Shown here in pieces: positions 383-61,418 of a DNA stretch of 64,000 nucleotides (positions within the stretch are counted from its first letter, which is position 1; every line of letters begins with the position of its first letter). A model generated the notes under the pieces. It was not told the DNA's origin and searched no databases. It was given only the letters and a program-made list of their open reading frames with translations. The stretch comes from Sphaerodactylus townsendi (taxonomy: Eukaryota): NCBI RefSeq assembly GCF_021028975.2, contig NC_059430.1, forward strand, positions 11,036,001 through 11,100,000. The letters run 5' to 3'. The position numbers were made by a program, and so were the translations under genes.

Positions 383-3300
383 CTTAATCTTGGAGACGAT
401 GTGGTGAAAATTAACATTGACTGGAGCAAGTTTCAGCACACTCCGCCACCCCAGCCCATGTTGCTCTTAAGTGTTCTGCAGCAGCATATTTCAGATTTGC
501 AGGTAAACGCTTTGTTCTACACTTTGAAACCCCAGACTTCAAACAAATCCTTCAGTGGCAGCTTGCGTGCTGCAAAATCTCATCTTCTGTGGTGTCATCT
601 CTGGATAAGGAATGGTGTGGTTGTATTGTGCATTTCAGTCTCTCTTGAATTTCGTAAAGCACTTCAACCTGTTATCTAAAGGGGTTATCAGAAGAGCTAC
701 GCGAATTGCATTGTAGGCTTCTGTGAGCGAGTAGAAGAAGAAGAGTTGGATTTATATCCCTCCTTTCTCTCCTGTAGGAGACTCAAAGGGGCTTACAAAC
801 TCCTTTCCCTTCCCCCCTCACAACAAACTCTCTGTGAGGTAGGTGGGGCTGAGAGAGCTCCAAAGAGCTGTGACTAGCCCAGGGTCACCCAGCTGGTGTG
901 TGATGGAGTATACAGGCTAATCTGAATTCCCCAGATAAGCCTCCATAGCTCAGGCGGCAGAGCGGGGAATCAAGTGCAGTCCTGTTCATTTCCACGTTTG
1001 CGTTATAAATGCAGTACATTTCCATGTGTCGTGGCTTATAATTAGGCAATAACATAGCAGGTGGGTGCCATGTTATGATAATGATTACATGCGTTGGGTG
1101 AGTTATGTGTTTTGCAGAGTGCTTTTGGTGGATCAAGAAATGGCATTATCCCACCAGGAAACATCTTGGTATGCCTCTGCAATTAACCAATTTGTAAAAA
1201 ATTAAGTAATTCATTAGACAGTCAATGTTTCATTTTGTCAAACAACCTATAGCTGTGTTGCATCATTTTCAGTGGACTCCTTAAAAGCTTTCTTACCGTC
1301 AAGCTACGCTACTTGCCCACAGTCTCTCTCTGTTTCTCCTTGGGGAGAAATGGGGATTCTTCTCTGGCGGAGGAGCTAAATCACTTTTTTGCCCGCTTTG
1401 AAACAGGTCTATCAGAAGGAGATGACACACAGCCACCAGGTGATTGCAGCTCACACCTCACTGTGGAGGAACATGAGGTGAGGTGCTCTTGAGGGCTGTG
1501 AATCCAAGGAAGGCTGCTGGACCGGATGGTATTCCCGGTCGGGTGTTAAAGGAATGCTTAACCAACTGGCTGGTGCAAGCTTTATTTCGATCTTTAATCG
1601 ATCTTTATCCCAGTCCACCATTCCATCTTGCTTGAAAGCTTCCAGCAGTGTGCCACTACCAAAGAGACTTCCTCCTGACAATCTTCAGGATTATAGACCA
1701 GTGGCACTCACCCCCATCATCATGAATTGTTTTGAAAATCTGGTCCATATAGGCATATTAGTTCTTTGCCTTCCAGATACATTTTGGATAAACATCAGTT
1801 CACATATCGGACCAATAGGATCTAATGGAGGACGCCATTGCCATTAGCCTCCACACAGCTTTGACGCATCTCGAACAGCAGGGGAATTATGTGCGAACGT
1901 TCTTTTGGCGGACTTTAGTTCCAGATTTAATACAATCTCACCACAAAGACTGGTGACAAAACTTGTGGATCTTTGGTTCCTCACATTCAATCTGTTTGTG
2001 GATTAGGGGACTTCCTTGTCTGATCGCTCCCAGAGGGTTAGACTGGGAAATCCAAGCTCTCAGTTCTTACTCTAAATATGGGAACGTTTACAGGGCTGTG
2101 TGTTGAGCCCCTTTTACTGTTCACCCTTTATACATAAGGATTGTAATTCTGTTCATCATAGTAACACCATTATCAAATTTTATTATGACATTAACGGTGG
2201 TGGGGCTCATCTCTGGAGGGGATGAGTCCTGCCTATCGGAATGAAGTGGACCGACTGCTCTCTCATGTGGTGCAGGGAAAACTAACCTGGTTCTGCACAC
2301 TAACAAGACAAAGGAGCCTTATAGTGGACTATAGGAAGGAATAGCTCAGGAAATTCAGCCCTTGACTATAAATGGAGATCAAGTGGAGCTGCGCTAGTTT
2401 TAAATTCCTGGGCTGCTATGGATTAAAGAGGATTTGACCTGGGGAGTACAGACTATCAAGGGTGAGAAAGCCCAGCAGCAGACTGTACTTTCTGAGACTT
2501 TTAAGGAAGCAACAACTAGATCGAAAACTTCTGGTGTCCTTTTATCAAGAAGCTATAGAGAGCGTCCTAACCTACTGCATCTGTGTATGGTTCTCCAGCT
2601 GCACAGTGGCTAACAGGAAGGCCCAAAGGGTGATCAATACTGCACAAAGGATTATCGGCTGCCCTCTCCCCTCCTTGGAAGAAATCTATAATGCCCGAAG
2701 TCTAAATAAAGCCCAAAATATTCTAAGGGACCCGTCTCATCCAGCACACTCTCTTTTTAAACTCAAGTACCATCTGGCAGACGATACAGGGCCCTCAGAA
2801 CTAGGACAAAGAGGCTTAGAGACAGCTTCTACTCTAGAGCTGTGGCTATGCTAAACTCCGCTGCTTCATATTGATGTATTTGGGGCTATGTAGGGATGGG
2901 TGGAGGATGATGATGTATGAGTCTGAAATTGTATGAGTCTGAAATTGTGTGCATCGAGGAATGCTGCTGTAAATTTCGTTGTGCGTGCACAATGACAATA
3001 AAATGCTTATGCTTATGCTTATGCTTATGCCTTAGCTATTTGTAGAAAAACTCCAGTCTTTGATTAAAGAAAAAAACGTCATGCTCACTGAGGATTCTAG
3101 TAAGGCAGAAGGCAAAACGGGGGAGGCTAATTCAAATGTAACAGAGAAAGATGCGCAGATGGAGGTGCAGGAAACAGCCTGTGCGTCTGGAAGCTCCAAA
3201 GAGGCACATGTGGATTTCAACCCAGAAGTGGTCCAGATAAAAGCTAGAAAAGCTGAGGTAAGTGACTCTGGGGCCGTTTTCCCTCCTTGTCCAGCCAATT

Positions 3301-6300
3301 CTCTCACTTTGAATAGCAATCATAAGAACATAAAAACAAGCCAGCTGGATCAGACCAGAGTCCATCTAGTCCAGCACTCTGCTACTCGCAGTGGCCCACC
3401 AGGTGCCTTTGGGAGCTCACGTGAAGGAGGTGAAAGCAATGGCCTGCTGCTGCTGCTGCTCCTGAGCACCTGGACTGTTAAGGCATTTGCAATCTCAGAT
3501 CAAAGAGGATCAAGATTGGTAGCCATAAATCGACTTCTCCTCCATAAATCTGTCCAAGCCCCTTTTAAAGCTATCCAGGTTAGTGGCCATCACCACCTCC
3601 TGTGGCGGTATATTCCAAACACCAATCACACGTTGCATGAAGAAGTGTTTCCTTTTATTAGTCCTAATTCTTCCCCCCAGCATTTTCAATGGATGCCCCC
3701 TGGTTCTAGTATTGTGAGAAAGAGAGAACAATTTCTCTCTGTCAACATTTTCTATCCCATGCATAATTTTATAGACTTCAATCGTGAACATCTCAATGCA
3801 CGTTGTTCCTGTTACTTGCAGATCGACAGACGCATATCAGCCTTCATCGAAAGGAAACAAGCTGAAATAAATGAAAATAACGTCAGAGAATTTTGCAACG
3901 TTATTGACTGTAACCAAGGTAACTACCCAATCAGGATTTGATTTTCGTAGGTCTGCAACTGTGGTTTTTCACCACTTACTTTAGACATCTCTTTAAAAAA
4001 CTTTTTTGTACAAAAGGGAAAGTAGGTTTTGTGGGTGAGTACAAAAGCTATTCGCTAGACATAATGCAGACAAACACCTTACTTTTCACATCCCCCATGA
4101 TCCTATACTAAGCCGATTCCCAGTGGTTCAAGCTAAACTTAAGTAATTTGCTTAAGCTAAATGCTGTATTTATTCTGATACAGTCCCATTGAGATTCATG
4201 GGGTTCAGCTGTAAAACTGATTTGTAAACCAAACTAGCCTCTTAAGTGAGGTAAGAATTGTATTGAAGAAGAGGTATTCAAAAGGCTTTCGTGGCCAGAA
4301 TCACTAGTGTGTGGTGGGTTTTCCAAGTTGTATGGCCATGTTCCAGTAGCATTTTCTCTTGATGTTTCACCTGCATCTGCAGCTGGCATACTCTAGAGAG
4401 ATGCCAGCCACAGATGTAGGCGATACGTCAGGAGAAAATGCTACTGGAACACGACCATACAACCTGGAAAACCCACAACACACTAGATATTGTATTGTCG
4501 AAGGCTTTCATGGCCGGGTTCAACTGGTTCTGGTGGGTTTTCCGGGCTTTATGGCCGTGGTCTAGTAGATCTTGTTCCTAACGTTTCGCCTGCATCTGTA
4601 GCTGGCATCTTCAGAGGTGTATCACAGAGAGAAGTCTGTTACACTGTGTCTGGACACAGCCCAGAAAACCCACCAGAACACTAGATATTGTTTGTTGAGA
4701 AGGCATCCTGAAAATAGAGGGGAGGAATTAACCTTCCTGTCACTTGTTTTGTAATGAATGTTCAAAATAAATCCAGTGTGGGGTTATATTTGTTTGTTTC
4801 CTACTGATCAAGAGCGTTTTCTCTGGATGACTCTTCAAATTAGCCCCAGAATACCCTTTCTTGGAGAAAATGTATATCAGACAACTAATGTTTGATTCAG
4901 ACATATTTTCATGATGCCCCTAGAAGATAAAGGTGCTGTATTCTGGGATGGAGTAACAAAAACCCTCTGTAAACATTAGCAGCGTTGGCTCTTCTGCACA
5001 TTGTCTGTTCCTGGATTTGATTTGTTAGCCTGTTCTGTTCAGTCTCTAGAATGCGTGTTTTAAAAGAAGTGCTAATTACCAATTCTTTGCCCAATTCTTA
5101 GAAAACAGCTGTGCTAGAACTGATGCCGTGTTCACACCTTATCCAGGATTTAAAAGTCATATAAAGGGTAAGCAGTACTGGGTTTCATTGCTGTCAACAT
5201 ATTAAGTGCGGGGTTTTGTTCTGTGAAATTATTTTGTAAACAAACGCTAAACCACACAATTAGTATGAATAAAAAGGCTCGTTGAGTTTTGCTAAAGACT
5301 TTCCTGGGCAGAATCAACTAGCTGTTGTGGCCGTGTTCTGGACTGCGTGGCCGTGTTCTGGTAGATTTTGCTCTTAACATTTCCGTCACATCTGTGGCTG
5401 GCAATTTCAGAGGCCCTGAACTCCACAGTGTGCCATGGAGAGAAACACATCTCACCTTGACTTGCCTGTTCGTGCGTAAAAATTAATCCTATCCTATCTA
5501 ATTTTAGTCTCTCGAGTTGTAAATACCTACGGCCCTCAAACGAGAAATGAAAACGCTCATGGGTCCAGTCATAAAGTAAACACCCTCCGCGATTGTGGGA
5601 ATCAAGCTATAGAAGAGCGGCTGCAAAATATTGAGGCTCATTTGAGGTTGCACACAGGTTAGTAGAGAAGCTTTGTAATTAGTTCGGATTTTTGGCGTTA
5701 TATAATTCCTGTAAAACATTTTCAGGTTATATTCCCAGATGTTGGTATTTGGTGTGTATCTATATATGGTTTTCCAATATCTCTTCCATTCATGTAACGA
5801 TATTATTTTCCCTCTGAGTTTTGCCCATTCATTCATGCAGTTTCTTATCAGGTCTTGCTCTACTCTTTGCTCCAGTAGTATTTTATATATTGTGGTGGTG
5901 GTGGTTGTTTTGATATTCATTGTTAAAACTCTGTCCATTCCATTGATATTTCCCATCTCTCAATGTCATGCATCATATTGTCCTTTATTTGTTGGTATGT
6001 TATCTCATCACAAGGTTCACCATTTATGTGTATTTCCTCTCTTGATTTCAGCTGTAGTCGTCCATTTAATTTCTTTTGTATGTCACAATAGGTTAGCCAA
6101 GTGTATCTCACTTTTCCATTGGATTGTTGTCTTGCTTCCATTCTTGATACCCATTGTGGTATCCTCACATAAAATATCTTCCTGTATTTTCTCCATATCC
6201 CATAAAGTGAGTTTCTGATATAGTGTATTATAATTTCCTTATTAACATCCACATTTCTGGTAAAATTTGGCCACAAATAATGGCTTTTCTGATGCTGCTT

Positions 6301-7531
6301 CTGATTTTTGAAGGTGGACCTGTCCCAAAAGACATTTATCAAAGAATTAAAAAGCTTGAAGATAAAATTCTTGAATTGGAAGGAATGTCACCTGAATATT
6401 TTCAGAGCGCTGTAAGTAACTCTTAAATAAGTTGAACTTATCTGTTGGATGTAGTCGACAAGAAATGATTGTATTTATAACTAATGAAATATAAAAAATA
6501 TGAACAATGATATAAACTCATGTATATAGATAAATGTATCTGAAATATTAGTTATAGCCAGAGTGCAACAGTAGTGGTAGTTCTATTATTGTTAGTTACT
6601 CATAACATATTTCTTAGCTTGATTTTATTGTTATCCTCCTTTGGAGGCTTTTAAAAGTAGAAGTTATTGAATAAAAGGAGACGAGAGAGGATTTCTTATA
6701 TTGTTATAGTGCTTCACTGTTTATGTTGCGACTGCATGTAAAGATCTACTTACATTTCAGTTTTGTTGATGTTTTGTAGAATTTGTCTGGCAAAAGAAGG
6801 AAAGGCCAACCGAATCAAGTAAGTGCATGAATCCTTGGAACTATACACTGGATATTCAAAGAAGCTCTTTCCATTCCCATTCTCTTCCTCTAACCTGTGA
6901 AGATTAAAAAAAAAATTCCCGCCTTAAGCTAGTTTAAATGTTTTGCCCCCACACACAAATCACACACCGGCCAGCCACAGATGCCGGCGAAACGTTAGGA
7001 ACAAGATCTGCCAGACCACGGCCACGCAGCCCGGAAAGCCCACCAACAACCAGTTGAGTCCGGCCGTGAAAGCCTTCGACAATACATCTCACACACACTG
7101 TTTGTCAGGATTCATAGAGTGTCTCTGAGAAAATGCTAATGCTAGCTCTCAAAATCATCTAATTCCACTTGAGATCTCTATCAAAAGACAGCTTTGGTAG
7201 TGTTTGAGTCTGCTTATGCTGTATTGGCTATGGCCATGCTGTATTGGCCATGGCCATGCTGGCAGGGGCTGATGGGAATTGTAGTCCATTAACATCTGGA
7301 GAGCTGCAGGTTGCAGACCCCTGATTTAGAACTTTCAGTGCAGAAATAATCCCACCACCTTCGTAGCCTATGAAAACTACTTGGAGCTCTTACGAATGTT
7401 GTTTGTGTTTCTTTTCTAAATTACAGAACTATTCTTTGGTTGAACTTGACGAGAAGATCAGAGCACTTAAACAAACATTGCTGCAAAAAACAAACGAGGA
7501 AAGGCCCAAGGTGGTTGATGAGCTTCTCTGA
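383..7531 (+). CDS. MBIP: MAP3K12-binding inhibitory protein 1, coding exons 2-9 (exon 1 lies upstream of the window)
   Basis: Exons 383-502, 3036-3257, 3822-3918, 5102-5167, 5508-5657, 6314-6411, 6780-6818, 7427-7531 (TGA). All have AG/GT ends and compatible phases. The spliced peptide includes LNLGDDVVKINIDW, VVQIKARKAEIDRRISAFIERKQAEINENNVREFCNVIDCNQENSCARTDA and GGPVPKDIYQRIKKLEDKILELEG, which match vertebrate MBIP. AATAAA at ~7642 and ~7882. Confidence 0.96.
735..973 (-). mobile_element. tRNA-derived SINE (Squam3-like)
   Basis: Family body and (CTT)n tail; head truncated. Confidence 0.85.
1342..3029 (+). mobile_element. Rex1/Babar non-LTR retrotransposon, 5'-truncated and frameshifted
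   Basis: Peptide remnants [46 protein letters not shown]; ends in AATAAA plus an (ATGCTT)n tail; flanked by CCTT/CCTT. Confidence 0.9.
3321..3784 (-). mobile_element. CR1 LINE 3' fragment in MBIP intron 3
   Basis: IEVYKIMHG...TRTRGHPLKM...[11 protein letters not shown]...LDSFKRGLDRFM; tail ttcttatg repeats. Confidence 0.9.
4282..4680. mobile_element. Two adjacent Penelope-derived palindromic elements in MBIP intron 4
   Basis: Both begin with gaaggctttc...ggcc; the second is flanked by the duplication ACACTAGATATTGT. Confidence 0.7.
5680..6265 (-). mobile_element. Degenerate L1/Tx1-like ORF2 fragment filling MBIP intron 6
   Basis: A-rich minus strand; peptide IYKILL...WKTIYRYT...NLKMFYRNYITP resembles the L1-clade ORF2 region before the Cys-rich domain. 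Confidence 0.6.
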
Positions 7532-21456: not shown

Positions 21457-21931
21457 NNNNNNNNNNNNNNNNNNNNNNNNNNNNNNNNNNNNNNNNNNNN
21501 NNNNNNNNNNNNNNNNNNNNNNNNNNNNNNNNNNNNNNNNNNNNNNNNNNNNNNNNNNNNNNNNNNNNNNNNNNNNNNNNNNNNNNNNNNNNNNNNNNNN
21601 NNNNNNNNNNNNNNNNNNNNNNNNNNNNNNNNNNNNNNNNNNNNNNNNNNNNNNNNNNNNNNNNNNNNNNNNNNNNNNNNNNNNNNNNNNNNNNNNNNNN
21701 NNNNNNNNNNNNNNNNNNNNNNNNNNNNNNNNNNNNNNNNNNNNNNNNNNNNNNNNNNNNNNNNNNNNNNNNNNNNNNNNNNNNNNNNNNNNNNNNNNNN
21801 NNNNNNNNNNNNNNNNNNNNNNNNNNNNNNNNNNNNNNNNNNNNNNNNNNNNNNNNNNNNNNNNNNNNNNNNNNNNNNNNNNNNNNNNNNNNNNNNNNNN
21901 NNNNNNNNNNNNNNNNNNNNNNNNNNNNNNN
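21457..21931. other. Assembly gap
   Basis: N run. Confidence 1.
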
Positions 21932-25344: not shown

Positions 25345-25611
25345 CGTGTATCTAATCTGGAGGAACTGGGTTTGATTCCCCGCTCTGCCGCCTGAGCTGT
25401 GGAGGCTTATCTGGGGAATTCAGATTAGCCTGGGCACTCCCACACACACCAGCTGGGTGACCTTGGGCTAGTCACAGCTTCTCGGAGCTCTCTCAGCCCC
25501 ACTCACCTCACAGGGGGTTTGTTGTGAGAGGGGAAGGGCAAGGAGATTGTCAGCCCCTTTGAGTCTCCTGCGGGAGAGAAAGGGGGGATATAAATCCAAA
25601 TTATTCTTCTT
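25345..25611 (+). mobile_element. tRNA-derived SINE
   Basis: Near-full copy. Confidence 0.85.
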
Positions 25612-39952: not shown

Positions 39953-40474
39953 CAGTGGTGGGATCCAAAAATTTTAGTAAGAGGTTCCCTCGCCAGCCCC
40001 CCCTCAGCAAAGGGGGCAGAGATGTACCTAGGCAAACCTGAGCCCTGGGCAAAACCTGAGTTGGATGCCCCCCCCCCCCATGGGCAGCCACCCCACCACG
40101 ACCCCCAAATTTTTTTTGCACCAGATCATTTCTAAATCATCATCACATTATAGAAAATGCCCCAACTCACAAATCTGAACACAGCAATGGTGAAACACAC
40201 AGGTTCTTTGATAGAGACTGGTGAGATAAAAGGCATGAAAGGCTGAGAATCAATGAAGTGCAGTACCTGAAAGGGATTAACCCAGTTCAGGGAGTTACAT
40301 TATTAGTCGCAGTTGCTATATGGAGCCTTCACGTTCAAAGGCAGGATGCCTCTCGGGGAGGCGAGGGCGTGGAGATGGAAAAGCGGACCCAATTAGTAAC
40401 CCCCTCTCGGCACACACAAATCATTAGTAACCCACTCTCGGGAACTGGTGAGAACCTGCTGGATCCCACCTCTG
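39953..40474. mobile_element. hAT-type MITE family A, distinct interior
   Basis: Same termini; 8-bp TSD GTTATAAC; unrelated middle sequence. Confidence 0.88.
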
Positions 40475-43191: not shown

Positions 43192-46100
43192 TTATTTGAC
43201 TGTCTTAGCCCAAAAGCACTCCTTGTTTTCTTTCCAGGAATATTCATCTTCATAGACCTCCTGAAACCAAAGAGTATCAAAGAGAATTATTGTCAAGTGG
43301 ATTACATGGATGTGCACTTTATTACCTGGATGTAAATGAGAAATCCTTTTGTCAGATACCGCAACCAGTGGTATCTGGTTTTAATTAACTGCCTGTTAGA
43401 ACATGCACTCAAACATGCTCCGACAGCCCATGGGTACAGCTAAACAACTAAATGTGGGTCTTTGGGGGAACCAATTGTCCTTCCTTCCACAGCAGTCTGC
43501 TGTTCCTCCCCAAATTGTGCCCACTGAAATCCCCAGAGGGGTCAAAGTGTGGGGGCCGCAATGAGGACTAGGGAAAATCACCCTCCCCATCTTCCAGAAT
43601 CAGAAATGCCTGTCAATGGAAAAGATACTTTGGATCCAAGTCCCAAAACCCCAAATAACACAACAACATGGGCTTTTTTTTTTGTAAACGGATACAAATT
43701 TATAGCATTATATGAAACCTTTTCATTGAGAATGGATGTTCATTGAGCAGTGGCATACTGGTTAAGAGCAGGTGCATTTTAATCTGGAGGAACCGGGTTT
43801 GATTCCCTGCTCTGCCACTTGAGCTGTGGAGGCTTATCTGGGGAATTCAGTTTAGCCTGTGCACTCCCTCACACGCCAGCTGGGTGACCTTGGGCTAGTC
43901 TCAGCTCTACGGACTCTCAGCCCCACCCACCTCACAGGGTGTTTGTTGTGAGGGGGGAAGGGCAAGGAGACTGTAAGCCCCTTCGAGTTTCCTACAGGAG
44001 AGAAAGGGGGATATAAATCCAAACTCCTCCTCCTCCTCCTCCTCTTCTTCTTCTTCTTCTCCTCCTCCTCTCACTATGTGGACATACATTTACGAGAACA
44101 GACAACAAAGCATGTATATTTTTCATCTTGTGGAAAGGTTTCCTATTTTATTTTTTAATGGATCATTATTAGCTAGTACACCCTTGGCAAACAGGCAATT
44201 TGTTGCCCCCTCTGACTACCCTGTTTCCCCGAGTATAAAACATCACCTGAAAATAAGACGTCGTAGAGGTTTTGCTGAAGTGCGAAATATAAGGCATCCC
44301 CCGAAAGTAAGACGTAGCAAAGTTTTTGTTTGGAAGCATGCCCGACGAACAGAACACAGAAAAATAAGACATCCACTGAAAATAAGACATAGCGCATCTT
44401 TGGCAGCAAAAATTAATATAAGACATTGTCTTATTTTCGAGGAAACATAGTAGCTGTCCCTATGTAGCATGGACGATGTACATGGCCCTTACGGTACCAT
44501 TTCAGAAAATAGAGATATTGCAAAACACGTACCTTTTTCCAGATAGGTACTGTTGTTTTTAAAGTATTGATGCAGTACTGAACAGCCTCCAGGGATTCCG
44601 TTCTGTGAGGAGTCGAGATTGCTACAATCACGCTCGCTTCGCTAATGGGAACCGTACTGCAGACAGTGAAAAGAGACATTTGTTGGTTGCTTTTAGCTAC
44701 GTTAGCTTAATCTTCAGACGTCTAAATAAAAAGCCAAGACCTTTTGGCTAAAGGCTACACAGACATACAAAAACAGGCAGGACATGTTCTAGGAATCTTA
44801 AATTAGCCAGGAACTGCGCACCTCACAGTTGTACTTTACAAGGTAGGACTCGACACAAAAACAAATTAAGAAAAGCGGATAATTTGCAACAACCACCACC
44901 TGGAGCAGCAGTGGCATAATGGTTAAGAGCAGGTGCATTCTAATCTGGAGGAACCGGGTTTGATTCCCCGCTCTGCCGCTTGAGTTGTGGAGGCTTATCT
45001 GGGGAATTCAGATTAGCCTGGGCACTCCCACACACGCCAGCTGGGTGACCTTGGGCTAGTCACAGCTTCTCGGAGCTCTCTCGGCCCCACCTACCTCACA
45101 GGGTGTTTGTTGTGAGGGGGGAAGGGCAAGGAGATTGTGAGTCCTTGAGTCTCCTACAGGAGAGAAAGGGGGGATATAAATCCAAACTCCTCTTCCTCTT
45201 CCTGTTATAACGATAAATTAAACTCTGAGCTGGGCAACAGTACCACAGCCAGGAACGTTCAGGCTCCCGAGCAACTTGTCTGAGGAAAGTTAGAAGTGCC
45301 CCCTTGCCCCATCGGTAGAGACCCACACATTTAAAAGATCAAACAGACACACACAGATATATATGCTATTGCTTTTTTTAACGGCTCAGGAGATGTGTAT
45401 GCAATGGCCATACGTACCCAAGTCTGTGGTGTATTGCTATATGTCTAACCGAGGGCCATTTTAATCTTATATTTGTGCATATTTTCTTGATTTCCACTTC
45501 AGCCATGGGTGCGTATGCTTCATATTCTAAGTGCTTGACCTTTTTCCCATCAAAGTTATTCCTGGTAGTGCCTAAAATAGAAGAACACGTTATTTTAACT
45601 GATACTTCATTCATTGAAAATGCTGGGGGGGGGGGGGGGAATTAGGACTAATAAAAGGAAACACTTCTTCACACAACGTGTGATTGGTGTTTGGAATGTG
45701 CTGCCACAGGAGGTGGTGATGGCCACTCACCTGGATAGCTTTATGAGGGGCTTGGGCAGATTTATGGAGGAGAAGTCGATCTATGGCTACCAATCTTGAT
45801 CCTCCTTGATCTCAGATTGCAAATACCTTAGCAGACCAGGTACTCAGATTGCAAATGCCTTAGCAGACCAGGTGCTCAGGAGCAGCAGTTGCTTTCACCT
45901 CCTGCACGTGAGCTCCCAAAGGCACCTGGTGGGCCACTGCGAGTAGCAGAGTGCCGGACTAGATGGACTCTGGTCTGATCCAGCAGGCTAGTTCTTATGT
46001 TCTAAAGGACCAGCTAGCCCTCCACCTCTGGAACAACAGCTTTGATAGTTATGTGCATCAACTACGGCTAATTATGACCAAGAACTTGCCAGGAATTTGA

Positions 46101-48138
46101 GTTGACAGTAGAGTAAGCGGTAAAGCAATTTCTCCCGTCCTTGGTCAGGTAATCCTGTACTTATCTAGATTTGTTGGGAGTTGGTGCTGATTTGGCATGG
46201 GCTACCTTTCAAGGACATTCCCATGACACTATTCCAGATCCCAGACATGAAGATGATATGATCCAAAACTAGCAGCAAAAGCGCATGGGCTGGAGCTCAC
46301 AGCACACACAAGGAAACAGATCTTCCGAATAAGGTTGTGGGCAGGTCTGAACAGCAGTCACACACAGCAGAGCATACCACTGTAGCCACACACAAAAACT
46401 GAGCCCCTTTCCGCACGGGCCGTTTACAGCTTCACAGCCGCGCCGCCCTCGCTCCCCTCCAGCGGTGCAAAGCCGCCATTTTCCCACCTCGCGCCATCCC
46501 CCCCCCCTTTCCCGATTGACTTACCTTCCCTGTGACTTTCCAGCGTGTCGTCGAGGTCGGGGGACACGCCCCCCTGCCCTGCGACTCCGGAGCAGTCGCG
46601 CAGGGCAGGGGGCGTGTCCCCTGGCCTCGGCAACGCGCCGGAAGGTCGCAGGGAAGGTAAGTCGATCGGGTGACGGCGCAGCGCAGTCTTCCCTGTCGTT
46701 ACTGGGACCGTTCGTGCAAACGGTCCCAGGGGGGTTGGGTCGGCGTACATGATCCCCAGCATGGCTGTGCAGAAGTGGCCTGAGTGTGTGATCGTGGTGA
46801 GGTTTCTAGTGGCCTACACATGCCGACAACACCACAGACTATGATGCAACAGGCTTCGGCAAAAATGTTGTAACATATACATGCATGCAGGAAAGTTATG
46901 TTAGGAAGTGGATTAGGGGGAATCATTGCTTGGCAAAGATAACTATCACAACATGTCATTGTGTACTAGTTATTGATATCCATTGGTATTTAGCTATGTA
47001 TATGTCATGATTGTTGTTATTTTGCGGATACTGTTACAGTATATGCCAGTGGTGGCGAACCTATGGCACGGGTTCCAGAGGTGGCACTCAGAGCCTTCTC
47101 TATGGGCACACGTGCATAGAGTTTGTCATGTGATAATAGTGTAATTATTTCAGGGAGATTATTAGCATTAAACCTTAGTTTTGGTGAAGCAGTGTAGGTA
47201 ACCCTGTTAAGCGCTGTTAAACCCTACTGATTTTCATGGGAAGAACGAAAGCGTGATCCTTTGCCTGGGAGTAAGCTCGGTTGCTGGTAATGGGGCTTGC
47301 TTCTGAGTAAACCTTCCTAGGGTCGTGATTCACCCGTTCGAAGAGTTGCACAGTTGCTTCAAAGCAAAGTCACCGACTACCACCAAGCTTACTCCCGACT
47401 AACGCACGCCTCGGAGCCAACCGTTTTTTCTAAACTAAAACCTCAGTATTCAGGTTAAATTGCCATGTTGGCACTTTGCGATAAATAAGTGGGTTTTGGG
47501 TTGCAGGTTGGGCACTCGGTCTCGAAAAGGTTCGCCATCACTGTTATATGCTAATGTGTCATGTTACTGATAATTTTTGTGTGATGGTATACTTTGTAAT
47601 GTACGATATTGTGATTTGTTATTTTGCTGACTTTATTCCCCATATCTATGAATTTTTTGTATATTATGATGCTTATTGATGTTTGCTAGTATTGATATTG
47701 CTGATATTGATATTGTTACTTATACTATTGTTGTGCGCCGCCCTGAGCCCTTCAGGGGAGGGCGAGATATACATTGAATAAACTAAACTAAACATGCATT
47801 GCCATATGAGCTATGGTGACTTTGAAGAACATACTCTGAGCCTCTTGGATTCAGAGTTGTGCTGCATGAATGAAAGTCTCATCCTCTGAAAGAATGTCTC
47901 ATCATCCTTCTGTCCACCCATTTATTTAGCTGCCAAAGATCATTCTACGCATGATATCCTGTCTTGAAATGGTCTACCAGGCAACTCTCTTACTTAACAA
48001 TATGCACTTGAGCCCACCTATGAACAGGGACACAGCCCCACAGCAAGGAGAAACCACCAGGGCGGACACTTCATCGGCTGAGAGCTTGCCTTCACTCAAT
48101 TTAATGAAGTCCTTGGGTTCATCCCCAATTCCATTCAT
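43192..48138 (-). CDS. MOCS2: Molybdopterin synthase catalytic subunit MOCS2B (155 aa)
   Basis: Exons 48138-48018, 45571-45418, 44656-44533, 43260-43192. MoaE motifs [40 protein letters not shown]. The ATG is inferred as the first in-frame ATG after the MOCS2A stop. Confidence 0.93.
43746..44069 (+). mobile_element. tRNA-derived SINE
   Basis: Full copy with (CCT/CTT)n tail. Confidence 0.88.
44217..44451. mobile_element. Tc1/mariner-type MITE
   Basis: TA-flanked TIRs (tgtttccccga...aataagac / gtcttattttcgaggaaaca) with internal AATAAGAC repeats. Confidence 0.75.
44903..45202 (+). mobile_element. tRNA-derived SINE
   Basis: Full copy. Confidence 0.88.
45608..46003 (+). mobile_element. CR1 LINE 3' fragment in MOCS2 intron
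   Basis: Same family; has a short internal tandem duplication at ~45811-45878. Confidence 0.9.
47047..47543. mobile_element. hAT-type element family B
   Basis: TIRs; TSD GTATATGC/TTATATGC. Confidence 0.85.
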
Positions 48139-48479
48139 GATATCTGTAGAAGAAAATAATGACAGAGTTGAATTACTGTTCTGGTTAGCGGAATCACTGT
48201 TACAAAGTCATTTCTGAGCAGCTGAGGTTTACCAAAGAAGCATGCCTCACAACACGCTTCTCAACACAACTCTTTTTGGTGGTTGGGAGGGATTACGCGG
48301 TTTTGCCTGCAGTGCAAACCCATTCAATACCCCTGATTTCTCTCTTGCATGTCTGGAACTTTAACAGCCGTAGCTGTTCACATTCTTCAATATTTCGATC
48401 AACCAACATTTCCTGTAAGCTCCACAAGAGCCCAGCCACGTGGTCGCCACATCGGTCCCGTGTAGATAAGGGGCCCCTC

Positions 48480-48869
48480 CAGTGGTGGGATCCAAAAATT
48501 TTAGTAACAGGTTCCCATGGTGGTGGGATTCAAACTGTGGCGTAGCACCAATGGGGCTGGGCGGGGAATGACGGGGCGTGGCTGGGTAGTCCAGGGGGGG
48601 GCATTCCTGGGCGGGGCTGTGGCAAGGACGCAGCCGCTGCGCCAGTCCTTGGGCGGGAAACAAATGCACGCAGGCGCAGGCTGCCACGCACGCCGGTGCA
48701 CCTCCTGCTAGACTGCTTCCAGTTCTGCGTGCTACTGCTGAGAGGAGGGGAGTAACTAAGGCCAAAATCACGTGGCAAAATCACCCATTAGTAACCCCCT
48801 CTCGGCACACACAAATCATTAGTAACCTACTCTCGGGAACCCGTGAGAACCTGCTGGATCCCACCTCTG
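48480..48869. mobile_element. hAT-type MITE family A
   Basis: TIRs and 8-bp TSD GGCCCCTC. Confidence 0.9.
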
Positions 48870-49026
48870 GGCCCCTCTGAAGGGGAACTCTCCCAGTGGT
48901 GGTTCAGTTGTGTGCAGAATCTGGGAAGTTCTGCACCGCACCAGGGAACAATTAGAGACTATTGTTGTCTACACAATCGCCATTTAGGAAATGCAACTCC
49001 ACACACCTGAAAAGGTCCTCCCAGCG

Positions 49027-52000
49027 TTAACCACCACTGATGGGTGGAATAATGGCAATCTCGTCACCCGTGTGCAGGTCTAGCAGCTGATCCCCAAGGA
49101 GTACGTATTCCTGGCGGACAGCCAAGACCACCTGATCTCGTAGGGCAACCAGGCTGCAGGAACAAAAACCAGGATAAAGATAATGTTTCCTGTGCTCACG
49201 CCCTTTCGCGAGGGTATTACAGGCCCAACGTCAACCAACTCAAGCTAGCTAATGCTAGATATAATACCGCAAGTCAGCTCTTGAGCCTAACAAATGTTTT
49301 CAAGGAAACTACATGCAGGAGCAGCAGTGGCGTAGGAGGTTAAGAGGAGGAGCAGCATTGGCGTAGGAGGTTAAGAGCTCGTGTATTTAATCTGGAGGAA
49401 CCGGGTTTGATTCCCAGCTCTGCCGCCTGAGCTCTGGAGGCTTATCTGGGGAATTCAGATTAACCTGGGCACTCCCACACACGCCAGCTGGGTGACGTTG
49501 GGCTAGTCACAGCTTCTCGGAGCTCTCTCAGCCCCACCTACCTCACAGGGTGTTTGTTGTGAGGGGGGAAGGGCAAGGAGATTGTAAGCCCCTTTGAGTC
49601 TCCTGCAGGAGAGAAAGGGGGGATATAAATCCAAACTCCTCTTCTTCTCTTCTTCTTAATTCCTTTAATTCTGCCATCTCCTCAACTGTGATTTTTAAAA
49701 CCTTTTTTGTCACACATTTCCCTAGAGGAAATGTTCTGAGGGAACAGAAGAGCTCATTTTTATTAGCACTTCTATTAGATTGACAGCAGCTGGGAAATGA
49801 ACAGAGTGGGGAATCAAACACCCTCCTCCAGTTCAGAGTCCATCTGCTCTTAACCACTACGCCATGCTGGCTCTCTATCATGAAGCTACTTAACCTGCCA
49901 TTAGTTTATGACAAAAGGCAAAGAATGTACTTTTATCTGGGCTTTAAATAAATGATAAACTTTCATTGAAATATAACACATACAAAGCTTTAAAGTTCAT
50001 ATAAAAAAACCAAAGTAACTGAAAAGAAAAAAAACCACATACATATTTCACTTCCCACTAACCATATTTAACTTTCTATCACTTTCACCAACTTACATTA
50101 CAAATTCTCAATTCCATATCTTTTTTAAGTTTAACTCATACCAAGTTAGTTCATTCCCATTTACTACGGGCTAGATGTTTTGCATAGTATATACATTCCT
50201 CATCTCAGTGCGTAAGATACGTTGACAGACGCAGAAGTTCTTTTCTATTGCTGGTATATTTCACCAGGGGATTCCAGCCTCTTAGACCGTTCTCCAAACA
50301 TATATTCTTTACTATTGTCGATAGTTTGTCCATGGCCGCGTACTCCTACAATTTATCCACCCAATCTTCTAATATTGGCATGTCTTCCGATTTCCAATAT
50401 CTGGCTATCAAAACTCTTGTCGCTGAGATCATATATGTTAATTTTAATTTTCCTTTCTAATAGAGGTATTTAATATATTTAACTTAAACATCTATTTTTT
50501 ATCTCAAAATCATAACCCAAAATATTTTTTAACACAGACACCATTCCAAAACTTTTTAGCCTTTTTACAGCTCTACCATATATGATACCGTTTCCCCGAA
50601 AATAAGACAACCCCTGAGAATAAGACGTAGTAGAGGTTTTGCTGAAGTGCTAAATATAAAGCGTCCCCCGAAAGTAAGACGTAGCAAAGTTTTTGTTTGG
50701 AAGCATGCCTGTCGAACAGAACACCTGAAAAATAAGACATCCCCTGAAAATAAGACATGGTGCATCTTGGGGAGCAAAAATTAATATAAGACACTGTCTT
50801 ATATTCGGGGAAACACAGTATGCTTACATCTCCAGCCTATGTTGGAAACTTTAGAATAAATTTTAGCAAGTTTTACAGGGTAGAATTTTTTTTAAGGTTG
50901 GCATTACATGTACATTTCATTTTCCCCCCAAATTCTATCCCAAACTTACAACTCAATTTCTGAATCAACCTCTCATGTTAACATGGGCTCATTCCGCACA
51001 TGCAGAATAATGCACTTTCAAACTGCTTTCAGTGCTCTTTGAACCTGTGCGGAATAGCAAAATCCACTTGCAAACAGTTGTGAAAGTGGTTTGAAAACGC
51101 ATCATTTTGCGTGTGCGGAAGGGGCCATACATTCCTTTACTCTCTCAGTTTATGTTTCTCTTAACAATAATACTTTATATATCCTTTTAATCCCAAATTT
51201 TTCATCCTTGCATAGGGCATCCCAAAGTTCACATTTTTTTTCATTTCAAAACCTCCTTTCACATCTTGCTTATATTTTTCTTTAAGCTGATGGTATAATA
51301 GAAACCACTCTTTAGCTCTAATTTTCATGTCATTTCTTTCCTTCAATTTTTGTTCACCTACAGCTCTCTTTAGTATATCCTTATATCCCCCACAGAGGCA
51401 TATCTAGGGAAAATGTAGCCTGGTGCAAAATCTGAGTTTTCTGCCCCCCCACCCCCACCCCCAATATGGGCAGCAGGAAAAAGAAAGGGAAGAGCAGAAG
51501 ATGTAAACCTTAGGACAGTGGTGGTGAACCTTTGGCACTCCAGATGTTATGGACTACAATTCCCTTCAGCCCCTGCCATGCTGGAAGGGGCTGATGGGAA
51601 TTGTAGTCCATAACATCTGGAGTGCCAAAGGTTCGCCACCACGGCCTTAGGATCTTCCATTTTTGCTTATGCAGTGGCAACTTACAGTTACCCATTAAAT
51701 CTGAGCCAAGCCTTAGGCAAAACACACACCTTGAATGTCTCTTCACAATTTCATCCCACAGCTGCAGCGATGTTATCTGCTGAGGCACAGAAATGGTCTC
51801 ACTGCGCACTCCAGCTAAATCAGCACTTCTTGCAAAATACAGCACTTCCACCTATTTTTAAAGAGTCCATCAAACAAAGAATAAAATTCAGCATTTTAAC
51901 CGCAGGGTAATTCCTGACATGGTGCCTGCAGGCGCCACAGTACCTGCCTATATGTTTTCTGGACTACACACTTGCTTTTTTTCTCCAAAGATCTCTGCCC

Positions 52001-53928
52001 TAAAACTGGTCAGTGATGGTTTTCTTCTGCCCCACTGGCATAAGAGGTGCATCATCTCTGGGTCTATAGGGGTGAACCATTCAGAAATAGCTGCCCTGTC
52101 TTTCAGGGGATTTCCCGTGTCTTTCAGGGGGTGAGGCCAGTGGTGGGATCCAAACATTTTAGTAACAGGTTCCCATGGTGGTGGGATTCAAACAGTGGCG
52201 TAGCGCCAATGGGGCTGGGTGGGGCACGACGGGGGCGTGGCCGGGCATTCCGGGGGCGGGGCAATAATAATTTCTCTGTATTGTCGAAGGCTTTCACGGC
52301 CGGAATCACTTGGGTGCTGTGTGGTTTCCGGGCTGTATGGCCGTGTTCTAGCAGCATTCTCTCCTGACGTTTCGCCTGCATCTGAAGATGCCAGCCACAG
52401 ATGCAGGCGAAACGTCAGGAGAGAATGCTGCTAGAACACGGCCATACAGCCCGGAAACCACACAGCACCCAAATAATTTCTCTGTTACTGTAAAAAACTC
52501 TTACTGTAAAAAAAATGTTCCTAATTTCCAGCTGGTATCTTTCTGTCCATAATTTAAACTCATCATAGCAAGTCCTATCGTCTACTGCCAACAGAAACAA
52601 CTACTTCTCCTCTAATTGACTGCCTGTCAAATACTTAATACTTTCAAATAATTTTGTATCTAGAAATCAAAAGAAGGATACTTTCCTTAAACCAGGAACT
52701 TTACCGTATTTCTAAAACATGTTTTTAAAACAGCCCAACAGGGAGAATTATCCCGTTTTCTACCTTCGCTAACCAGCCACAGAGGAAACAACAGGACTTT
52801 ATGATTTTTGGACCTAATGGAATTTGTAACGGAAAAGCAGACCCAATTAGCAACCCCCTCTCGGCACACACAAATAATTAGTAACCCACTCTTGGGGACT
52901 GGTGGGAACCTGCTGGATCCCACCTCTGGGTGAGGCTAGATGACTTTTGAGGTCACTTCCAGCTCTGTGTTTCCATGTTTAAGTGACACCTGTTAAATAA
53001 GTTCTGCAAGCTAGACCAAAGTTATGCAGCGGAAGCAGCAGAAGCAAGAACTAGCTGATTCCCAGCAATGCCATTCCCAGCTATTCCCAGCTGATTCCCA
53101 GCAATGCCATTCCCAGCTAACAGCCAAGTTTGCCTTTGAAACAAGAACGGATTATGCGCCAAACATCTCAGAATAACCATTTTACATCATTTTGTCTCCT
53201 AACTGTATACCCATTAATGAAAGAACGTATTTACCAACTGACTTTCCTTTGTAAACTTGCTGAGTCATTCTTCCTTCCCACCAGCGCACATAACCGAAAA
53301 GGTTATTCAACCCCACAAGTTTCCAGGTCTTCGGCTTTATTTTCAAAACGAACACGGGGGGGGATCCTTGCAAATCTATTCCGTATAGATTGCAGGCAGG
53401 GCTCAGCAGGCAGCTTTGAGATCCCCCACACGGTTAAATTAAGGCCCCTTCCGCACATGCAGAATCATGCACATGCAATCCACTTTCACAATTGCTTGAA
53501 AGTGGATTTTGCCACTCTGCGCAGTAAAATCCAGCTCTGAAGCGCACTGAAAGCGGATAGAAAGTGCATTACTCTGCATGTGTGGAAGGGGCCTTAGATG
53601 CTGGCCTGCAACCTGCGAAACCTAAGCTGGACCGAGGCGCGCGTGGACTACCAGCCCCCCCCCCCCCCAATGCTGCCTGTGCGCCCCCCCCTCTCAAATT
53701 AGGGGTCTCAGGAGTCCCAGATCCGTGGGCCTGGCTTGCAAGCTATAGGCCCAGCGGAGACCCCCGGGGGAGGAGGGGCAAGTTGTGCTAGGAAGGGGAT
53801 GGGAGAAAGGGTGCGAGTCCTTGCAAGCGCTTTCCCACGACTCCAAGGGCAGCCCGCGGCCAGCCTCGCTTTCCCGCGGGCCCGGGGAGGGGAGGGGGGG
53901 GGTGAGCGCTGCATACCTGGCAGGTCAT
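49027..53928 (-). CDS. MOCS2: Molybdopterin synthase sulfur carrier subunit MOCS2A (86 aa)
   Basis: Exons 53928-53917 (MTCQ), 51851-51730 (VEVLYFARSADLAGVRSETISVP...) and 49153-49027 (...GDEIAIIPPISGG-stop). Ends in the MoaD-type C-terminal di-glycine. Confidence 0.95.
49319..49657 (+). mobile_element. tRNA-derived SINE with duplicated 5' head
   Basis: gagcagca(g/t)tggcgtaggaggttaagag occurs twice in tandem. Confidence 0.88.
49940..51390 (-). mobile_element. Degenerate L1-like fragments in MOCS2 intron 2, interrupted by MITEs
   Basis: A-rich minus strand with L1-like remnants (EWFLLYHQLKEKYKQD and similar). Confidence 0.5.
50586..50820. mobile_element. Tc1/mariner-type MITE, same family
   Basis: Near-identical to 44217-44451. 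Confidence 0.75.
51516..51644. mobile_element. Fully palindromic hairpin MITE
   Basis: Palindrome; 8-bp TSD CCTTAGGA. Confidence 0.9.
52138..52928. mobile_element. hAT-type MITE family A, long variant with nested Penelope-derived element
   Basis: TIRs and 8-bp TSD GGTGAGGC. Confidence 0.9.
52277..52470. mobile_element. Penelope-derived palindromic element
   Basis: Same family; flanking duplication AATAATTTCTCTGT. Confidence 0.75.
53442..53594. mobile_element. Palindromic MITE (GGCCCCTTCCGCAC TIR; PIF/Harbinger-like)
   Basis: Inverted termini flanked by TAA/TTA; relatives at ~29997-30126, 35301-35401, 50985-51126. Confidence 0.65.
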
Positions 53929-54250: not shown

Positions 54251-54726
54251 CCCCCCAGAGGCGGGATCCAGCAGGTTCCCACCAGTTCCCAAGAGTGGGT
54301 TGCTAATTATTGGTGTGTGCCGAGAGGGGGTTGCTAATCGGGTCCGCTTTTCCGTTAGAAATCCCATTAGGTCCAAAAACCATAAAGTCCTGTTGTTTCC
54401 TATGTGGCTGGTTAGGGAAGGTAGAAAAACGGGATCATTCTCCCCGTTGGGCTGTTTTAAAAACATGTTTTAGAAGTAGGGTCAAGTTCCTTGTTTCAGG
54501 AAAGTATTCCTTCTTTTGATTTCTAGAAACAAAATGAAGTATTTGAAAGTATTAAGTAGTTGACAGGCAGTCGATTGGAGGAGAAGTCGTTGTTTCTGTG
54601 GGCAGCAGACGATAGGACTTGCTAGAATGAGTTTAAATTATGGACAGAAAGATAGTGTAACCCCCATGCCCAGAATGGGTTGGCCCAGAATGGGTTGACC
54701 CAGAAAGGGGTGGAGTCTGAAAAGAA

Positions 54727-55287
54727 GCAGAATAGAATAGAATAGAATCTTCATTGGCCAAGTGTGATTGGACACACAAGGAATTTGTCTCCGGTGCATA
54801 TGCTCTCAGTGTACATAAAAGAAAAATACATTTGTCAAGAATCATAAGGTACAGCACTTAATGATTGTCATATAGGTCTAGTAAGCAATCAGGAAACAAT
54901 CAGTAGTAATGAAAACATAAAATGTAAAATCATAAAATAAAATGTCAGCACAGGCTATAGTCATACAGTCATAAGTGGGAGGAGATGGGTAATAGGAATG
55001 ATGAAAAAAGTAGTGCAGTAATTATATAATAAGTATATAATAAATAGTTTGACATTATCGAGGGAATTATTTGTTTAACAGAGTGATGGCATTCGGGAAA
55101 AAACTGTTCTTATGTCTAGTTGTCTTGGTGTGCAGTGCTCTGTAGCGACGTTTAGAGGGTAAGAGTTGAAACAGTTTATGTCCAGGATGCGAGGGGTCAG
55201 TAAATATTTTCACAGCCCTTTTTTTGACCCGTGCAGTATACAGGTCCTCAATGGAAGGCAGGTTAGCAGCAATTGTTTTTTCTGCAG
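54727..55287 (-). mobile_element. Second Rex1/Babar subfamily 3' fragment with (ATTCT)n tail
   Basis: Minus-strand translation AEKTIAANLPSIEDLYTARVKKRAVKIFTDPSHPGHKLFQLLPSKRRYRALHTKTTRHKNSFFPNAITLLN; tail reads gaatagaatagaat on the + strand. Confidence 0.85.
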
Positions 55288-55450
55288 AATGCTGCAGAAC
55301 TCAGAGCTCTTTGGAGAAGACAAGGCTACCAGACTCGGACCTTGATTTCTATAAGCCCTTAACACCTTGTTAAGGTAATTGCAATATTATTGGGAACTAC
55401 TGGGAAGGTAGTTGTTTATTTTTGCTATGTTGTAAATGTTGGAGTTTATT

Positions 55451-55672
55451 TGGGTGCTGTGTGGTTTCCGGGCTGTATGGCCGTGTTCTAGCAGCATTCT
55501 CTCCTGACGTTTCGCCTGCATCTGTGGCTGGCATCTTCAGAGGATCCTCTGAAGATGCCAGCCACAGATGCAGGCGAAACGTCAGGAGAGAATGCTGCTA
55601 GAACACGGCTATACAGCCCGGAAACCACACAGCACCCAAGTGATTCCGGCCGTGAAAGCCTTCGACAATACA
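55451..55672. mobile_element. Penelope-derived palindromic element with hammerhead-like motifs
   Basis: 188-bp near-perfect palindrome (55451-55638) plus a unique tail; 12-bp duplication TTGGAGTTTATT; CTGAAGA...GAAACGTC core on both strands. Confidence 0.75.
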
Positions 55673-56524
55673 TTGGAGTTTATTGTTTCAGGGTTTCTTT
55701 TTGTGGTTGTAATGGGTGAGAGTTCTCCTGGAAACCTTCATCATGTTGCATCCTGTTCACCAAGCCCTTGGAGTCTTCTTCAGGAGCCAACCTACTTTAC
55801 CAAAGAAGAATTGGACTTGGCAGTAGCAGTAGACTGTAACTAGAAGGACTTGAATGTAACTAGAGCTCTATAGGAATCGCAAGTTTCTCCGATAACTATA
55901 CTTATCAGTTTCACCAGCATGGCCAATTGGCCATGCTGATAGAGGCTGATGGGAATTGTAGTTCCTGAACATCTGGAGAGCCGCAGGTTCCCTACCCCTG
56001 CCCTAGAGGATGGGGCGGTATAAAAGTTTAATAAATAAATAAAAATAAATAAACCTGAACAGGACCTTGAATTGTAATGTTCAATGTTGATGTTTAATGT
56101 TATTTGTAAAGAGAAGTTTTGTTTAAATTTGGTTCTTTGCAACTCCTTCCAAGTACTGCCCCACAGAACCCACAAGCTGAGGTTACAATAGCAGCTGGAA
56201 ATTAGGAACTGTTTTTTACAGTAAGAGTTTTTTACAGTAACAGAGAAATTATTAATGCCCCGCCCCCGGAATGCCCGGCCACGCCCCTGTCATGCCCAGC
56301 CCCATTGGCGCTACGCCACTGTTTGAATCCCACCGCCATGGGAACCTGTTACTAACATTTTTGGATCCCACCACTGCCGACCCCTATCAGTTGCACAGGA
56401 TTTCCTGATCTGCAAACTCAGGGAGGGCTTTAGCTTGGGGTACGCGTGGAAGTCCAGTGATACTCGCTGCCTTTTTTTTTTTTTTTTGTACACAGGATAT
56501 AATGTGGATGCTGTAATTAACCAC

Positions 56525-60559: not shown

Positions 60560-60830
60560 ACAGAAGCAGCGGCCATCTTGGGTAAGGGCAAACGCCGGCT
60601 TCAGTAGAGTCCCGGCCGTATGACCAGCCTCCCGGAAGAAGGACCGTTCCAAGTCTCGCGAGACCCACAGCTGCTTGGCCGGAGCGATTTCTGCAAACGC
60701 TGTTAGAAGCTCGCATTGGGGGTGTCTGCAGAACCTCCGCGGACCGTGGCTCGTCCTGCCGCGTTATTGTCACTGCTCGGCCCTTGCCCGTTGAGTCCCT
60801 GCTGCGGGTCTTTGCCGTGTCGGTGATGGG
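60560..60830 (+). promoter_or_regulatory. CZIB: CpG-rich housekeeping-type promoter of CZIB
   Basis: YY1-like GCGGCCATCTT (~60569), ETS-like CCGGAAG (~60631) and palindrome TCTCGCGAGA (~60654) directly upstream of the ATG exon. Confidence 0.75.
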
Positions 60831-61418
60831 GGTGAGCGGAGCCGCTGCCTCTGTGCAGAGGGATTGAAGCACTTGGGGGGGCTCAGACAGAGGCGCAGCT
60901 GGGCAAAGCTGCGGCAGGGGCGGCCTCTGCGTCCCCCCCCCCCCATGGCCCCGTGCCGCAGGGATCCATGGGGGGTGCAGAAAGCACGGGTGGGGCAGAG
61001 GGGGTTCCCTGCTCGGTGCCACCGCCATTCCCCCTCTTCCCAATGGAGCCTCCTCCCTGGGACCGAGGGGGTTTCCCTGCCCATGCAATGGGGGGGCGGG
61101 GGGCGTTTTTGCCACTGTGCTCAGCTACGTTCTGCTTCCAGCATTCATTGCAATTAAAAGACAATAAAATACGCGGCTTATGAATAAACAGCAAGTCAGG
61201 AATGAAAAGGTGGGTGGCGTCTGCTTACGTTATCTTGCATTATCAGCAATAATGCCTGGGGGGCATCTTTGCCACTGTGCTGAGGTACGTCTGGGGTCAT
61301 CTCCCGCACCTGATACGCTCACCTCTCTTTGCAGAAGATCGGGTTGCAGCTGAAAGCCACGTTAGAAAATATTACCAATCTCAGACCGGTGGGGGAGGAT
61401 TTTCGGTGGTACCTGAAG
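60826..61418 (+). CDS. CZIB: CXXC motif-containing zinc-binding protein (C1orf123), exons 1-2; gene continues beyond the window
   Basis: ATG GGG|gtgagc (60826-60831) spliced to 61335-61418 gives MGKIGLQLKATLENITNLRPVGEDFRWYLK, nearly identical to the N-terminus of vertebrate CZIB. Confidence 0.93.

Follow-up and report, generated by a model that had tools for sequence, protein, structure and literature searches.

How did five small genes that other reptiles keep, with a single exception among the pairs compared, on separate contigs come to stand side by side in the gecko Sphaerodactylus townsendi? A first-pass annotation of a 64,000-nucleotide stretch of its genome (the window) had placed MBIP, GALNT4, DYNLT5, MOCS2, and CZIB next to each other, and gene models together with protein identities confirm this: all five lie within 61 kb, in the order MBIP (+), GALNT4 (-), DYNLT5 (+), MOCS2 (-), and CZIB (+) (Table 1). 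MBIP matches S. townsendi XP_048358306.1 at 298/298 residues (100% identical); the exact GALNT4 sequence is present in the protein collection, in the GALNT4 cluster, on a 133,801,376-bp contig on which MBIP and MOCS2 are recorded as well; DYNLT5 carries the Pfam Tctex-1 domain and shares 96% identity with its Paroedura picta counterpart; and CZIB is identical to PDB 5zlq_A (human C1orf123) at 27/28 residues, with a match to Pfam PF05907 (E 2e-4) just below the curated cut-off. A hexamer scan places AATAAA/ATTAAA-type signals for GALNT4 at 13339 and 12440 only, so that its 3' UTR is likely long. An Rfam search of the window gave no matches, and RNA runs with window sequence were absent from the matches listed.

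Table 1 Genes, gaps, and repeat features of the window, numbered from its first nucleotide
Feature	Position	Strand	Remarks
MBIP, exons 2-9	383..7531	+	298 codons and stop; exon 1 (first 45 residues) upstream of window
MBIP exons	383-502, 3036-3257, 3822-3918, 5102-5167	+	GT-AG
MBIP exons, continued	5508-5657, 6314-6411, 6780-6818, 7427-7531	+	GT-AG
GALNT4, one exon	19174..20925	-	583 aa; Pfam Glycos_transf_2 and lectin domain
N gap	21457..21931		475 N; sole intergenic gap, GALNT4-DYNLT5 join
Fusion of truncated hAT MITE (15-bp internal repeat) and 5'-truncated SINE	24982..25615	+	candidate scar; repeat-bearing part 24982-25344
DYNLT5 (TCTEX1D1), 4 coding exons	32614-32726, 35188-35279, 36521-36645, 39535-39738	+	177 aa
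N runs inside DYNLT5 introns	35793-35979, 37651-38243
hAT MITE	39953..40474	+	8-bp target-site duplication matches; organism C shares both flank-element boundaries
hAT MITE truncated after 43 bp and abutting apparent end of another element	42358..42425	+	candidate scar
MOCS2 poly(A) signal	42449
MOCS2, 7 exons, bicistronic	43192..53928	-	Pfam MoaE
MOCS2A exons	53928-53917, 51851-51730, 49153-49027	-	86 aa
MOCS2B exons	48138-48018, 45571-45418, 44656-44533, 43260-43192	-	155 aa, identical to XP_048357214.1
MOCS2 CpG island	53601-54400
Nested stack: hAT MITE enclosing solo LTR	54256..56376	+	MITE flanks match 6/8
Solo LTR inside hAT MITE	54656-56187		TG...CA ends, 4-bp duplication
CZIB CpG island	60501-61000
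CZIB (C1orf123), exons 1-2	60826..61418	+	30 codons in window; remainder beyond window end

In models built from the coordinates, every internal junction has GT-AG splice sites and no internal stop occurs; the earlier statement that the frames are intact holds to this extent, the CZIB frame being judged over 30 codons only and that of MBIP without exon 1. MBIP, DYNLT5, MOCS2, and CZIB retain their introns, which excludes retroposition for these four and, as had been claimed at first pass, disposes of a retrogene cluster; contigs from a distant organism (run X14) also fit exon by exon. The intron state of GALNT4 is undiagnostic in this respect because the human gene, too, presumably has a single coding exon.

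Nor is the gene order inherited. As chromosome tag we took the contig recorded with each protein, and we tallied the reptiles with tags for at least two of the five genes, a sample that leaves out birds, mammals, amphibians, fish, and species with one tag or none, in which scaffolds serve as tags in some cases (Gekko, Varanus, crocodilians), and in which a pooled entry may carry the tag of another assembly. Different contig tags were found in 57 of 58 gene pairs from 30 other reptiles, ruling out an ancestral arrangement; the same order, which the first-pass annotation had proposed to look for in outgroups, was not seen. Other geckos follow this pattern (6/6 pairs with different tags in four species, GALNT4 being compared in no gecko other than S. 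townsendi): MBIP, DYNLT5, and MOCS2 occupy three chromosomes in Paroedura picta, and MBIP and MOCS2 lie on separate contigs in Eublepharis and Heteronotia. Lacerta agilis and Thamnophis elegans each distribute MBIP, GALNT4, DYNLT5, and MOCS2 over four chromosomes. The sole shared tag, which also provides the one placement of CZIB outside S. townsendi, is that of DYNLT5 and CZIB in the turtle Eretmochelys; a protein search found no gecko CZIB record. The order is thus non-ancestral, as first proposed, but because of this shared tag we count four donor chromosomes rather than five separate neighbourhoods.

Accession numbers extend the comparison to Euleptes, a member of the same family, in which DYNLT5 is 16,000-19,000 accession numbers away from MBIP and MOCS2 and the latter two are only 2,880 apart. 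This spacing suggests different chromosomes, weakly so for the MBIP-MOCS2 pair. We kept accession closeness for the chromosome scale only and rejected it as a measure of fine-scale synteny, given that MBIP and MOCS2 are 35 kb apart in the window, yet separated by 1,092 accession numbers.

No trace of old neighbours was seen either. We take the human genes to lie at 14q13 near BRMS1L/NKX2-1 (MBIP), at 12q21 inside POC1B (GALNT4), at 1p31 by SGIP1/INSL5 (DYNLT5), at 5q11 by ITGA2/FST (MOCS2), and at 1p32 between CPT2 and MAGOH (CZIB), with ITGA2, SGIP1, and MAGOH presumably ~1-10 kb from MOCS2, DYNLT5, and CZIB. Fused gene models in outgroups show two of these as old neighbours directly: in an owl model (P0090), SGIP1-type domains are joined to DYNLT5, and in a Chelonia model (P0362), MAGOH is joined to CZIB. 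In agreement with the initial reading, which recognised no such neighbour, the SGIP1 and MAGOH parts of these models match nothing anywhere in the window, and motifs for the integrin-alpha tail, the MAGOH end, and the relaxin A chain gave no matches in it.

Which of the genes have moved depends on the chromosome that carries the window. By chicken synteny, we presume that the home of GALNT4 is LG06. The accessible text of a chromosome comparison gives the pairs Lac01-Sph02, Lac06-Sph05, and Lac11-Sph07, with XP_048354324 assigned to Sph05 and XP_048358536 to Sph07 (PMC9774356); because the accessions 048357214 and 048358306 of the window fall between these Sph05 and Sph07 markers, we infer that the window lies on LG06 or LG07. 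MBIP, DYNLT5, and CZIB would then be away from their home chromosomes, while one gene may still be at home, namely MOCS2 if the chromosome is LG07 or GALNT4 if it is LG06. The accession of Lacerta GALNT4 falls between Lac11 and Lac13 markers, and this gene may have moved once earlier within squamates. LG06 of S. townsendi matches two crested-gecko chromosomes according to the available part of another report (PMC11797025), making a fusion site on LG06 a possible setting for the cluster.

In phylogenetic trees, MBIP (91/90) and MOCS2B (93/88) are sister to their Euleptes counterparts and DYNLT5 falls within the gecko clade (100/98), while the position of GALNT4 among lizards is unresolved. Judged by these trees and by their translations, MBIP, MOCS2, and DYNLT5 are gecko-clade orthologues with open frames. 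The five could alternatively be extra copies, whether segmental duplicates in a mosaic like those of primate pericentromeres or a B-chromosome-like block, with the donors unassembled or unannotated. Support for this idea comes from the 7.8% of tetrapod BUSCO genes reported missing from the assembly in the accessible text of its description (10.1101/2021.08.13.456260), from low-copy, paralogue-like contigs at 42421-42746 and 58571-59098, and from an MBIP branch ~3x that of Euleptes (0.14 vs 0.049). The short branches of DYNLT5 (0.013) and MOCS2B (0.019) argue against it, as do the RefSeq entries of S. townsendi, of which MBIP and MOCS2B have one each, accompanied in either case by another annotation of that gene, and the depth at MOCS2 exon 6, where run X2 contains two alleles at ~31x each. 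Retained donor copies, which a duplicon mosaic would have, were thus not found for MBIP and MOCS2, and we regard extra copies as very improbable.

The site also appears clean of gene debris. In a scan for pseudogenes and gene fragments, none of 228 stop-free ORFs of at least 48 aa from intergenic sequence and from CZIB intron 2 reached the Pfam cut-off (226 without a Pfam family, two with sub-threshold matches), by a scan that is insensitive, especially to short exons, two of six true gene controls having given nothing.

Clean single copies are, at the same time, the result expected of misplacement, and the lack of gene fragments fits it likewise. The joins might be assembly artefacts if barcode scaffolding had joined short contigs of different chromosomes, sparse nanopore gap closure had sealed them via shared repeats, and Hi-C had placed the product. 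Joins made by 3D-DNA typically carry round 500-N gaps, and the S. townsendi genome spans ~1.8 Gb. According to the accessible part of its description, the assembly was built from linked reads, 6.57 Gb of nanopore reads for gap-filling, and Hi-C with a SuperNova-Tigmint-ARCS-TGS-GapCloser-NextPolish-3D-DNA pipeline (10.1101/2021.08.13.456260). Because gaps were filled in this manner, the absence of N is no proof of contiguity, and nanopore depth comes to ~3.6x for a genome of that size. As first noted, the MBIP-GALNT4 and DYNLT5-MOCS2-CZIB junctions contain no assembly gap, the N runs lying elsewhere; three of the four joins are N-free, the one exception being GALNT4-DYNLT5. No gap in the window has the round 500-N size, which speaks against a chimera. 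A LINE copy in MBIP intron 2 contains a concentration of small indels, and many indels are also found in the MITE at 11824-12174; both may mark nanopore-derived sequence, although for the majority of intergenic repeats the indel count is not elevated. An order found in no other species of the tally is also what a chimera would give. A comparison with Lister's gecko describes, in its available text, many rearrangements where chromosome ends are presumed to lie, which may stem from mapping issues (PMC12142722).

Contigs from four of the 22 sequencing runs listed were aligned at 85% to 39450-59449; all were short and repeats swamped the tables, and among the matches listed no contig spans two genes, which again is compatible with a chimera. 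Contigs of a relative (organism C, run X6) are colinear with the window over 39455-39972, 40455-40953, and 42828-43362, and run X2, possibly not independent of the assembly, matches 41858-42378 exactly; the uncovered remainder of the DYNLT5-MOCS2 join amounts to ~1.9 kb and contains three repeats of at most 162 bp. At 42421-42746, the only X2 contig among the matches listed differs at ~8% of sites, as a paralogue would, and one X2 contig departs from the window at 58571, leaving 438 bases unplaced.

Repeats between the genes bear on the joins as well. Of the non-N sequence, 32% is duplicated elsewhere within the window (10-45% in intergenic stretches), compared with 44.47% masked genome-wide in the accessible text of the assembly report (10.1101/2021.08.13.456260), a different measure; these figures do not show the region to be rich in transposable elements, as first proposed. 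Matching 8-bp target-site duplications flank 15 distinct hAT elements, seven of them intergenic; wherever both ends of an intergenic element were located (within 1 kb; seven of seven), the duplications are intact, so that no misjoin passes through them. The nested stack at 54256-56376 is coherent, which excludes a misjoin through it likewise. Together, the target-site duplications and the colinear contigs of the relative narrow the room for misjoins without closing it. The strongest case for real joins comes from the genes themselves: a chimera needs four misjoins in 61 kb, and none of the four joins cuts a gene or brings along a neighbour's exon. Such gene-sparing joins are expected from selection on real moves and rarely from random misjoins, and therefore favour a real arrangement. 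We consider it likely that the five-gene arrangement is real, and a chimera rather unlikely.

If the joins are real, what carried the genes? In compound or alternative transposition, the ends of neighbouring hAT MITEs would have excised whole genes and pasted them here without duplication. Young hAT MITEs are abundant in the window, and cut-and-paste would account for the single copies. However, complete elements bear their own duplications, and among 440 pairs of termini that face inward across more than 3 kb, none shares a duplication at 7 of 8 positions. The same count led us to reject a compound hAT transposon or Pack-TIR carrying the genes, and transposition of this type is the least probable of the explanations weighed here. 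SINE and CR1 copies gave no target-site duplication signal above chance. A 4-bp match at 57589-58566 had suggested an LTR, but we discounted it as probable coincidence because a LINE-like frame crosses this interval.

Fused truncated elements occur in two of the joins (24982..25615 and 42358..42425), and these might be breakpoint scars of an end-joining type. The family of the second piece at 42358..42425 was read by eye, and the site is found immediately past the poly(A) signal of MOCS2. One catastrophic event, either chained templated insertions or chromothripsis-like repair, could have stitched together fragments from four chromosomes and then become fixed, and such an event would be consistent with the fused elements, with the similar sizes of the gene blocks, and with their tight packing. 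Truncated elements, however, occur in introns too (in an MBIP intron, a MITE end at 7312-7322 is without a partner), the two genes from a common donor chromosome, DYNLT5 and CZIB, are separated by MOCS2, and the event would require that chance put a whole gene into every piece and that all donors were lost later. A single event is accordingly improbable.

Altogether, we favour, at somewhat better than even, a model whereby small whole genes moved repeatedly, at the DNA level, into one site in the Sphaerodactylus lineage with loss of the donor copies. The blocks measure ~8-12 kb between promoter (or first exon) and poly(A) signal, a size that suggests a limit. In our model, a tract of ~8-15 kb with its promoter and poly(A) site would be copied in during double-strand-break repair, or an excised circle would be reinserted, and three or four such events would have occurred at one break-prone site later than the split from Euleptes. 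Tract length would have capped the cargo at small genes, and purifying selection would have retained only those events that brought a complete gene, and that gene would later have been left as the only copy. The part of the hAT MITEs and SINEs would have been that of bystanders, or of substrates for breakage, and not of carriers. A copy-then-lose route would be expected to leave fragments, and the lack of debris therefore counts for excision and reinsertion or for an artefact. Going further, we suggest tentatively, as a possible but doubtful extension, that whole small single-copy genes from across the genome were repeatedly taken in at an acceptor site, possibly where chromosomes fused or at an acrocentric end, which became their only home; on the same tentative reading, the gene-collecting region would extend well beyond the window, in a vertebrate whose synteny is conserved elsewhere.

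Parallels for parts of this model exist in other systems. Primate pericentromeric and subtelomeric duplicon mosaics are multi-chromosome patchworks with introns kept and repeats at the joins, and the gecko patchwork resembles them in all three respects; these mosaics consist mostly of fragments and pseudogenes with the donors kept, whereas the gecko genes look whole and, where tested (MBIP and MOCS2), single. Cattle KIT Cs29 and tilapia vasa reportedly transposed via circular DNA intermediates, and there, too, whole intron-bearing gene segments changed chromosome without a transposon frame; these cases are single loci and circularly permuted, while in the gecko genes no exon permutation was seen. 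DNA-based gene transposition or relocation, by copying followed by donor loss, is described in the available text of studies on Drosophila, grasses, and Brassicaceae (PMC2817413, PMC4563886, PMC6379040). As in flies and plants, intron-bearing genes stand at non-syntenic sites here while large-scale synteny is retained, but the gecko case involves three to four interchromosomal moves onto one 61-kb site, and in a reptile. Defined regions that accept DNA-copied genes have been described, in the accessible parts of two reports, for autosome-to-W gene gain in songbirds and for pericentromeric gene gain on willow sex chromosomes (PMC7692361, PMC11580687), and the acceptor site proposed here would be similar. 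The sex chromosome of S. townsendi is given as LG3 in the available text of the assembly report (10.1101/2021.08.13.456260). Unlike the songbird and willow regions, the gecko window would lie on an autosome, LG06 or LG07.

Gene order in reptiles is strongly conserved, and moves of single intron-bearing genes are usually scattered. We found no published report of this five-gene cluster in the literature searched, which was mostly without subscription papers, and it goes unmentioned in the accessible parts of three studies (10.1101/2023.01.20.524006, 10.1101/2024.07.29.605683, PMC12549870). Collinear pairs amount to 70.19% between Teratoscincus and Sphaerodactylus vs 73% between Teratoscincus and Euleptes in the available text of the last of these (PMC12549870).

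If the arrangement is false, it reveals that a reference genome in wide use contains N-free misjoins, and this is relevant to synteny work built on S. townsendi. If it is real, complete genes, including the molybdenum-cofactor gene MOCS2, left their old neighbourhoods and converged in one gecko lineage, and the ~100 species of Sphaerodactylus would offer a datable system for learning how whole genes move and how much flank they need. Finally, if the acceptor-site reading is true, the cluster would show which genes can quit neighbourhoods that have been held for 300 million years.

At the join between DYNLT5 and MOCS2, a contig from X14, the sequencing run of a distant organism, aligns to the last exon of DYNLT5 but, at 85%, does not align to the sequence 3' of the stop codon. 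X14 also matches 220 bp of a MOCS2 intron, and the DYNLT5 breakpoint may lie close to its stop codon. A diverged, paralogue-like contig begins near the MOCS2 poly(A) site; its paired TG/CA changes are common to the runs X2, X5, and X6 (the last from a relative colinear with parts of the join), and it may have arisen as a retrocopy that was truncated, belong to a low-copy repeat, or be what remains of a donor. Within MOCS2, the MOCS2B product has the same length as in other lizards. Human MOCS2B has an upstream start that overlaps MOCS2A; such a start is absent from the minus-strand segment listed in the table.

Positions of features in and between the five genes
Feature	Position (strand)	Detail
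MBIP intron	3258-3821 (+)	564 nt; exons 3036-3257 and 3822-3918
MBIP-GALNT4 ORFs	9300-11100	longest 473 aa
DYNLT5 3' of stop	39743 onwards	
Paralogue-like contig	42421-42746	diverged ~8%
MOCS2B start	48138 (-)	155 aa
Upstream MOCS2B start, absent	49003-49153 (-)	
Solo LTR segment	55373-55690 (+)	ends GT...AG
X2 record 16	58571-59098	
Inverted pair	59718-60081 / 60888-61216	~88% identity

Between MOCS2 and CZIB, a segment of the solo LTR is missing from the contigs of all four runs aligned and probably represents an LTR-family intron that has been spliced out in other genomic copies. Further along, record 16 of run X2 aligns to a single stretch, with its initial 438 bases unplaced among the matches listed, and could be a polymorphic insertion, a paralogue, or a junction. 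CZIB exon 1, together with its CpG island, lies between the two arms of the inverted pair.

One MBIP intron is stop-free and keeps the frame, and its retention would add 188 residues. Only 2 of 20,000 shuffles of this intron were stop-free, which makes chance less likely, though it may still account for this one among about 15 introns. In the MBIP-GALNT4 interval, a GC-rich segment carries long overlapping ORFs, for which a Pfam scan gave no match; self-comparison of the window found no second copy of it.

In Eublepharis, MBIP is present under two accessions with identical proteins (P0124 and P0242; XP_054828703/4 and XP_054828982/3 'like'), a sign of either recent gene duplication or duplication in the assembly. 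GALNT4 of Lacerta (P0261), Thamnophis (P0258), and Rhineura (P0252) lies on mid-sized chromosomes, in contrast to the largest chromosome of turtle; its departure from the amniote site may have occurred early in squamates.
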